Shown piece after piece: positions 6,590 to 6,708 of a stretch of 8,607 nucleotides of DNA. The notes beneath the pieces are model-generated. The model searched no databases and was not told the origin of the DNA. It worked only from the letters and a program-made list of their open reading frames with translations. Where the stretch lies: UHGV virus genome UHGV-0254280. The stretch is one strand, 5' to 3'. Source of the stretch: a virus. Every line of letters begins with the position of its first letter. Within the stretch, counting starts at the first letter, position 1. Made by a program: the position numbers and the translations under genes.

Positions 6590-6666
6590 TGAATCTTAGA
6601 ATCTAAATATTTATTTATTGGTGTGTTTATAATTTCTTAGTTTCTAAGTGTCAAGAATTCTAAGTT
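6590..6666. promoter_or_regulatory. Operator-like repeats (TCTAAG / CTTAGA motifs) in the divergent control region
   Basis: Three motif clusters: aatCTTAGAatCTAAat (6591-6607), tttCTTAGtttCTAAGtg (6633-6650) and gaattCTAAGtt (6655-6666). The middle one sits inside the promoter spacer. Confidence 0.5.
6626..6654 (-). promoter_or_regulatory. Sigma70-type promoter for gII
   Basis: On the minus strand: -35 TTGACA (6654..6649), 17-bp spacer, -10 TATAAA (6631..6626), about 50 bp upstream of the gII start. The spacer contains the inverted repeat CTTAG-TTT-CTAAG. A perfect TATAAT on the plus strand (6628-6633) overlaps the -10. Confidence 0.6.
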
Positions 6667-6708
6667 TTGAGATGTATGATGAGGTATGAAAAAACAGAGG
6701 GGATATAT

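Follow-up and report, generated by a model that had tools for sequence, protein, structure and literature searches.

A likely repressor-operator cassette at the replication gene of an Escherichia coli filamentous prophage

The DNA analysed here, a stretch of 8,607 nucleotides referred to below as the window, corresponds to one 8.6-kb unit of an E. coli filamentous (inovirus) prophage. Its minus strand bears the replication gene (4570..6570), a homologue of Zot/pI (557-1759) and a secretin gene (7247-8455), together with a possible single-strand-binding protein, small coat genes and a pIII-like protein. A megablast search with the whole window gave no DNA-level match among phage records, and no RNA family from Rfam was detected in it. 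Related DNA was found in 106 of 5,426 complete E. coli genomes, five of which cover at least 80% of the window; the segment 6500-6950 was 100% identical to NZ_CP159170.1. In these genomes the prophage adjoins hipA and ydeQ, which places it in the dif region, and in some of them tandem copies are present 8,739 bp apart. The window itself bears an inverted pair of dif-like sites, one at 7100-7127 (plus strand) and one at about 7170-7199 (minus strand), with the junction at 7193/7194; they lie on the flanks of a hairpin contained in the non-coding region 6898-7246. These sites are diverged arms that were recognised by eye, and the full 28-bp dif sequence was absent from the window when up to 3 mismatches were allowed. 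The presence of paired inverted dif-like sites points to XerCD-type integration at dif.

The replication gene specifies a 666-aa HUH replication endonuclease (Rep) with a GTG start codon, located 7 nt after a Shine-Dalgarno motif read from the sequence (GGAGG, 6578..6582, minus strand). The first-pass annotation had named this gene gII; the protein is, however, not of the Ff gII type but a member of the Phage_GPA family (Pfam PF05840, E = 2.4e-48). In tblastn searches it was 29-30% identical to RstA of CTXphi and pre-CTX over 66% of the query (E ~1e-51), and showed the same level of identity to the Rep proteins of fs2 and VFJ (29-30%, E ~1e-51). Divergent from Rep (6570-4570, minus strand), and separated from it by an intergenic region of 138 bp, there is a small ORF on the plus strand (6709..6897) preceded by a GAGGGG Shine-Dalgarno motif at 6697-6702. 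It would encode a protein of 62 aa that begins with MPTKHI and is the candidate sequence-specific repressor of the system.

The 62-aa protein belongs to phrog_5219, a PHROG family with no assigned function (E = 1.7e-22). A large protein collection contained 89 relatives, many of them on contigs of 5-10 kb, from Citrobacter, Salmonella, Providencia, Proteus, Pseudomonas, Shewanella, Pseudoalteromonas and marine metagenomes. The homologues all start at MPTKHI, and the family is nearly invariant in this N-terminus and in the segment WRKVEKETVKAV. Very distant relatives (32-42% identical, at least 100 aa long) keep MPTKHIDD and have 3-6 tandem CTTAGAAA units upstream. Searching Pfam with the 62-aa protein gave no match at E values up to 10, helix-turn-helix families included, while a search with 47 aligned relatives rendered scattered weak matches only (best E 0.0013, no family being matched by more than 3 of the 48 members). 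Profile searches against the PDB gave chance-level matches, and Foldseek found no significant match in the PDB or BFVD; the Foldseek match to RstR of CTXphi (C9E7D4) had an E value of 5. A tblastn search against phages recovered two metagenomic inoviruses and no RstR. The AlphaFold2 model (pLDDT 85.5) consists of an extended N-terminus and three helices. Arc and Mnt of P22, CopG of pMV158, omega of pSM19035, TraY and TraM are ribbon-helix-helix repressors that read arrays of short repeats. Given its predicted topology and its conserved N-terminal arm, the 62-aa protein may reasonably be proposed to have a fold of this kind. The family had no sequence or profile match to known ribbon-helix-helix families, and hhalign comparisons with Arc and CopG showed no similarity, with a probability of 0.1%. 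No description of a phrog_5219-type protein family, or of the CTTAG motif considered below, was found in the literature.

The intergenic region contains a cluster of CTTAG/CTAAG pentamers that exceeds chance. Counted on both strands, the pentamer is present six times in the window, where 10.9 copies would be expected by chance, and four of the six lie within the 70 bp between 6595 and 6664. When six sites were placed at random, finding at least four in 70 bp had a probability of 3.5e-5; similarly, when the 138-bp region was shuffled 20,000 times with its dinucleotides kept, no shuffle reached four copies, the mean being 0.30. The copies form part of three putative operators. O1 (6595..6607, CTTAGAATCTAAA) is an imperfect 6-1-6 palindrome, CTTAGA-A-TCTAAA, with its CTTAG at 6595-6599; at loci L004 and L006, which are among the closest cassette relatives, it is the perfect palindrome CTTAGATTCTAAG. 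It lies about 41 bp from O2, at approximately +13 to +25 relative to the predicted start of the Rep transcript. O2 (6636..6648) is the palindrome CTTAGT-T-TCTAAG, which can also be read as CTTAG-TTT-CTAAG; it abuts the -35 element of the predicted Rep promoter, fills its spacer, and is the best conserved of the sites. O3 (6659..6672), TCTAAG-TT-TTGAGA, is an everted pair of half-sites located in the spacer of the promoter predicted for the 62-aa ORF, with its CTAAG at 6660-6664; in relatives, this position is occupied by TCTAAG or TATAAG followed by TTTAGA. In the O3 area, the direct repeat TTCTAAGT recurs at a distance of 16 bp. The inverted repeat in the spacer of the minus-strand promoter had been pointed out in the first-pass annotation, as had two flanking copies of the motif, and all of them are present (the flanking ones being CTTAG at 6595 and CTAAG at 6660). 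Half-sites set 7-8 bp apart in inverted, everted or direct orientation are reminiscent of ribbon-helix-helix regulators such as omega and CopG.

The conservation of these elements was followed at loci encoding a relative of the 62-aa ORF, of which 39 came from reference genomes and 70 from IMG/VR viral contigs. Enrichment was calculated on 36 non-redundant genome loci and on 58 distinct IMG/VR viral contigs; geometry was evaluated on 23 non-redundant loci anchored on a conserved GTCAA, corresponding to the minus-strand -35 element, and on the 55 of the 58 viral contigs in which this anchor was found. At the genome loci, CTTAG/CTAAG was enriched more strongly than any other strand-symmetrised pentamer within 150 bp upstream of the ORF homologues, with 15.6 copies per kb as compared with 0.85 per kb over the remainder of the loci (18-fold). 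The hosts of these loci include Enterobacterales, Pseudomonas, Aeromonas, Pasteurellaceae, Shewanella, Pseudoalteromonas and others. The viral contigs again gave CTTAG/CTAAG as the first among pentamers (19-fold). The positions are kept as well. A CTTAGA-like half-site at an offset of exactly -14 from the anchor, which is that of O2 in the window, was present at 17 of the 23 genome loci and in 35 of the 55 anchored viral contigs, while a TCTAAG-like half-site at offset -48/-49, that of O1, was found at 15 of the 23 loci. The lack of conservation of the motif in relatives had been named in the first-pass annotation as an outcome that would speak against its proposal; instead, the motif, its positions and the -35 element are maintained upstream of ORF homologues in dozens of distant phages. 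Judging from these counts, the CTTAG motif is tied to the 62-aa-type ORF across a wide range of hosts.

On the minus strand, a sigma-70 promoter is predicted to serve Rep. Its -35 element is TTGACA (6654-6649) and its -10 element TATAAA (6631-6626), the two being separated by a 17-bp spacer (6648-6632); transcription would start near 6619. This TTGACA-17-TATAAA arrangement, already proposed in the first-pass annotation, is in place 48 nt upstream of the Rep start codon. According to an approximate position-weight score (10.93) it is the second best promoter in the whole window, both strands considered. The -35 element is TTGAC[A/T] in all of the 23 aligned loci, and a minus-strand -10-like hexamer lies 16-18 bp from it in nearly all relatives, including 53 of the 55 anchored viral contigs. 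Backed by this conservation, the predicted Rep promoter can be regarded as well supported. It was missing from a consensus promoter scan of the window, since that scan follows a stricter rule that demands a T at position 6 of the hexamer, which TATAAA does not have. The absence from TATAAA of the highly conserved -7 T is an observation that counts against a Rep promoter at this site.

As regards the plus strand, the first-pass annotation had drawn attention to a perfect TATAAT (6628-6633) and had proposed that the two promoters face each other. The two hexamers do exist in the window and overlap by 4 bp. If both were active, convergent polymerases would compete for the same DNA and a repressor could tip the balance; in fact TAAATA-18-TATAAT, with a score of 7.19, is the top-scoring plus-strand promoter of the intergenic region. 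We nevertheless find this arrangement improbable. The best -35 available to TATAAT, TAAATA at 18 bp, is poor. In the alignment, the corresponding hexamer of the three closest cassette relatives (L004-L006) is TATAAG, with loss of the critical -7 T, and unrelated hexamers take its place elsewhere. A different plus-strand -10 element is conserved: TATGAT at 6675..6680, with a weak -35 (TCAAGA, 6651-6656) and a predicted start near 6687, was unchanged in a four-way alignment, and at 18 of the 23 loci a TAnnnT hexamer was found at this fixed offset, 23-25 bp to the right of GTCAA, and suitably spaced from the ATG (20-35 nt upstream). Within this window alone TATAAT outscores TATGAT, whose score is 5.02. 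A TAnnnT test applied to the hexamer at 6628-6633 was dropped because the operator half-site TAGATT fits the same pattern, and the non-conservation of TATAAT was for this reason argued from the aligned columns. The TATAAT probably arises because the minus-strand -10 element is AT-rich and almost a palindrome; at most, it might be an additional promoter specific to the window, with a plus-strand start near 6640. The conserved TATGAT implies that the two promoters would be divergent and back-to-back, with transcripts that do not overlap. Such a layout, in which the promoters share their -35 zone and have predicted starts near 6619 (minus) and 6687 (plus), is the better supported one, and the face-to-face detail is probably wrong.

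The operators, both promoters and the 62-aa ORF together make up a segment of about 305 bp (6591..6897) that appears as an exchangeable regulatory cassette. In comparisons with phages having other Rep families, similarity to the window begins at 6594/6595 and ends between 6897 and 6948. Conversely, in comparisons with near-identical E. coli phages, similarity is lost between 6567 and 6590 and regained downstream of the small ORF's stop codon. At loci L004 and L006 the cassette is about 75% identical to that of the window at the DNA level from 6594/6595 on, and the adjoining Rep is a 349-aa protein of the G2P type; at L005 the cassette lies upstream of a different G2P-type Rep, of 371 aa. The gene upstream of the cassette specifies a Rep of the G2P/Phage_CRI type in nearly all relatives. 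Among the viral contigs, 41 of the 42 upstream genes that could be classified were of this type, and a GPA-type gene was present only in L051, a close relative of the window. The G2P-type Reps and the GPA-type Rep of the window have no Pfam family in common.

These comparisons bear on the idea that the CTTAG repeats could be iterons bound by Rep, or the nick-site region of a replication origin. The repeats are located directly upstream of Rep, and origins typically contain short repeats. The 62-aa ORF nevertheless has these repeats, at unchanged offsets, beside G2P-type Reps as well, and E. coli phages with a nearly identical GPA-type Rep have wholly different intergenic repeats. As the cassette adjoins unrelated Rep families, and as the repeats track the small ORF across these families instead of co-varying with Rep, an iteron or origin function was rejected, and we regard it as very improbable. 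The repeats follow the small ORF rather than Rep, in line with a role as its operators.

The inverted repeats might, alternatively, form a hairpin in the packaged single strand, acting as a packaging signal or as a minus-strand origin like those of the Ff phages, which mimic promoters. Positions 6590-6614 and 6629-6653 could provide the arms, being 76% complementary, although this complementarity arises because O1 and O2 are palindromes of the same motif. Folding of the single-stranded DNA is predicted to be weak (-6.5 kcal/mol, z = -1.87), with 9 of 200 shuffled sequences folding equally well; what is conserved is the sequence and position of the half-sites, not their pairing, and the separate, large non-coding region 6898-7246 already carries a hairpin, the one flanked by the dif-like sites. 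With so weak a fold, a single-strand hairpin was rejected as the main explanation and appears most unlikely.

E. coli phages whose Rep and structural genes share about 94-98% identity with the window contain, at the site of the 62-aa ORF, other small ORFs of 60-71 aa that belong to phrog_2503. At least four cassette types could be distinguished among the E. coli relatives, each with its own intergenic repeats: one set consists of six copies of TGCAAnn with an 8-bp period, another of three copies of TGTTAAnn, and a third of two copies of CCGCATGCG located 43 bp apart. In the intergenic regions of these alternative-allele phages CTTAG is absent or present once. The alternative-allele proteins had no Pfam match; they are 42-45% identical to the 'environmental RstR' of CTXphi IB1617 and to RstR-like proteins of the Vibrio phages VAI1 and VAI2. 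Proteins of this phrog_2503/'environmental RstR' group share with the 62-aa protein their position in the cassette, a small size (60-71 aa) and a lysine-rich tail, and their cassettes have, like that of the window, intergenic repeat arrays with an 8-bp period, although the repeat sequences differ. The phrog_2503 proteins are only about 20% identical to the 62-aa protein and belong to a different PHROG; an hhalign comparison of the two families was marginal (17% probability, P = 0.0014 over 46 columns), and homology is not claimed. At the sequence level, this pattern of cassette exchange matches that of the heteroimmune rstR/ig-2 alleles.

Two other E. coli prophages (L007 and L008) encode an identical 62-aa protein downstream of a different small regulator, and have no CTTAG operators. 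The gene can therefore exist without CTTAG sites, and these orphan copies count against a repressor-operator relationship. They may be remnants of dif recombination, or else trans-acting genes that provide additional immunity.

Taken together, we consider it likely that this temperate filamentous phage has a self-contained ~305-bp regulatory cassette, of which 6591-6708 is the cis half and the 62-aa gene (6709-6897), probably specifying the repressor, the other. The enrichment in CTTAG, the fixed offsets from the -35 element, the presence of the cassette beside unrelated Reps and the existence of allelic small ORFs with their own repeats make a repressor-operator relationship between the CTTAG sites and the 62-aa protein a well supported proposal. 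The first-pass annotation had suggested that the divergent 62-aa protein plausibly controls Rep through the repeats; this is now the most plausible assignment, as the motif, its positions and the -35 element are conserved upstream of the ORF homologues. The comparisons show the sequence elements, their non-random clustering, their conservation at fixed positions, their inheritance together with the ORF instead of with Rep, and the exchange of the cassette between alleles; from these we infer that the protein binds the sites, that repression is the effect, and where transcription begins. A strong minus-strand sigma-70 promoter, starting near 6619, would drive Rep and the genes behind it, while the 62-aa gene would be transcribed the other way from a weaker plus-strand promoter (-10 at 6675-6680, start near 6687). 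The 62-aa protein would bind, most likely as an oligomer, to the 6-bp half-sites CTTAGA/TCTAAG, spaced 7-8 bp apart, which make up O1, O2 and O3. Since O2 fills the spacer between the -35 and -10 elements of the Rep promoter, protein bound there would shut out RNA polymerase. O1, in the transcribed leader, could serve as a roadblock or allow looping or cooperation with O2, and O3, in the spacer of the 62-aa gene's own promoter, would lead to autoregulation. Occupancy of the operators would keep Rep levels low, and with them replication and virion production; incoming phages with the same cassette would also be repressed, resulting in immunity.

The protein could also bind the CTTAG arrays for another end, its main role being that of a copy-number homeostat similar to CopG, or of a promoter activator, rather than lysogeny-type repression. 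Filamentous phages replicate chronically and do not kill their host. CopG and omega are small regulators of plasmid rep genes that act on short-repeat arrays, similar in general terms to those of the window, and the weak -35 of the 62-aa protein's own promoter would suit activation. On the other hand, the location of O2 between the -35 and -10 elements of the Rep promoter is a classic repressing position, and the phage is integrated at dif, often in tandem, with a cassette that exists as alleles in the manner of the CTXphi immunity regions (PMC11509585). A main role as homeostat or activator is accordingly judged unlikely, lysogeny-type repression through the CTTAG operators being the preferred explanation.

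The logic of such a switch is known already; the protein family that would run it is uncharacterised. In Vibrio, Pseudomonas, Yersinia and E. coli, virulence as well as biofilm behaviour is shaped by temperate filamentous phages, and the quiescence switch has been worked out for only a few of these phages, namely CTXphi, Pf4 and SW1. The present analysis provides phrog_5219, a widespread unannotated family, with a testable function, a putative binding motif and a predicted promoter layout. It also shows, at the sequence level, that the inoviruses integrating at dif in E. coli exchange putative regulator-operator cassettes much as the cholera phage does its heteroimmune rstR alleles, which would explain how several such phages can reside together in tandem at dif, and predicts a compact set of apparently orthogonal repressor-operator pairs. 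Of most interest are the ability of the cassette to accompany different Rep families and the pairing of the invariant MPTKHI with CTTAG. A bolder possibility, which we put forward very tentatively and which may well be wrong, is that the ~305-bp cassette is a portable control module that has moved between filamentous phages with unrelated Reps across many bacterial orders, that its protein represents an undescribed DNA-binding family reading CTTAG through the invariant N-terminal arm MPTKHI, and that the orphan gene copies confer a stacked, trans-acting immunity against rivals at the shared dif site.

The first-pass annotation had compared the logic of the locus with that of rstR/rstA in CTXphi, and the likeness is closer than it stated: the window's Rep is a homologue of RstA, the prophage lies at dif with inverted dif-type sites, and the cassette is allelic. 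In both phages a small regulator gene is divergent from the Rep gene, with adjacent, divergent promoters, and the cassette varies among otherwise similar phages together with its cognate repeats; both form tandem prophage arrays at dif and have inverted dif-like sites. There are also differences. The rstA promoter of CTXphi is LexA-dependent, whereas the intergenic region of the window has no LexA box (CTGT-N8-ACAG, up to 1 mismatch), the sole match being at 6835-6850, inside the ORF and at chance level. Classical RstR is a helix-turn-helix (Xre-like) protein twice the size of the window's 62-aa protein, which has no sequence similarity to it and no helix-turn-helix match in Pfam. The predicted operators of the window, in which 6-bp half-sites are arrayed 7-8 bp apart, are likewise unlike those of CTXphi. 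The alleles of CTXphi RstR repress only the cognate ig-2/rstA promoter (PMC11509585). The ig-2 region is compact and contains three RstR sites (PMC4762005), and its length of 138 bp is that of the intergenic region of the window. Other filamentous phages also have phage-borne, divergently encoded repressors of Rep or of the structural operon, such as Pf4r of Pf4 and FpsR of SW1 (PMC8402870, PMC4762005); these are helix-turn-helix, cI-like proteins, unlike the 62-aa protein. In SW1 the regulatory region extends over 621 bp, the 5′ UTRs are long and overlap, and the promoter of FpsR is not bound by FpsR itself (PMC4762005), whereas the region of the window is compact, and a predicted operator lies within the regulator's own promoter.

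The small ORF's stop codon is followed directly by ∼55 bp (window positions 6903-6960; AGTTACCTATCGATACGAAGATTGCTAGAAGCAATATGCAGACAACCAGTGA) that are kept behind different cassette alleles in two other E. coli prophages (L007 and L009), and this conserved stretch marks the right-hand boundary of cassette exchange. In a further type of relative, the same Rep gene is preceded, at a distance of 2 bp, by a gene encoding an IS110-family transposase, which takes the place of the regulatory cassette (L002, 10161-11129; NZ_AP022261.1). Similarity to the window stops at position 6567 in L002 and in ∼25 other E. 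coli genomes with this transposase gene, and the prophage in these L002-type relatives lies between ybiB and hcxB, not at dif. This suggests that the same phage backbone can be joined to a different integration and regulation module.

The gene for the 62-aa protein was also found apart from its operators. Prophages L007 (2749-3206) and L008 (2728-3188) contain a copy specifying an identical protein (WP_033808723.1), immediately downstream of a gene for a different small regulator of 70-71 aa (phrog_2503). In both loci, the copy has neither CTTAG operators in its vicinity nor an evident promoter of its own. In L007, three small genes of this kind are consecutive and adjoin hipA.

More distant relatives of the ORF, encoded in Erwinia, Pantoea, Rahnella, Enterobacter and Cedecea (L041-L045), are longer (at least 100 aa) and 40-42% identical, and retain the MPTKHIDD start. 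Upstream of position 3001, before the ORF, L041, L043 and L045 each bear between two and six CTTAG-containing units that follow one another in tandem, or nearly so, every 8 bp; perfect CTTAGAAA units number three in L041 and six in L045. Over the same region, L042 and L044 show only one or two isolated CTTAG copies. In at least one of these five loci (L042), the gene adjoining the ORF relative encodes a tyrosine integrase, not Rep. As to the alternative alleles, the small regulator of the cassette in E. coli prophage L001 is similar to the 'environmental RstR' of CTXphi. In the classical coliphage If1 (L050 1201-1353; U02303.1 5143-5295), the 'major intergenic region' contains an unannotated reading frame that is 41% identical to the L001-type regulator.

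A copy of the 62-aa cassette (79% identical) was also present in a 3.67-kb unit found in tandem repeat in L004 (1-6346; NZ_AP045072.1), together with genes for a G2P-type Rep, a single-strand-binding protein and two hypothetical proteins. No morphogenesis genes were found in this unit, which resembles an RS1-type satellite element.

Elsewhere in the window, the pIII-like gene includes a long repeat rich in glycine and serine (GGSSGSGGSGSGSG...; 2590-2960), which accounts for the long spurious ORFs seen there on both strands.

A dif-like site (AGTGCGCACAATGACGTTATGTATAAA) was recognised by sequence on the plus strand at 7100-7127, as was a second, inverted relative to it, at ∼7170-7199 (minus strand, reverse complement), with a GC-rich hairpin between them (7128-7165). 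The prophage/chromosome junction on the hipA side, mapped in NZ_CP159170.1, falls at 7193/7194. The window continues into the secretin gene and therefore derives from a tandem array or circular form. Taken together, the inverted pair and hairpin (7100-7199) look like the folded single-strand attP that XerCD uses in CTXphi.
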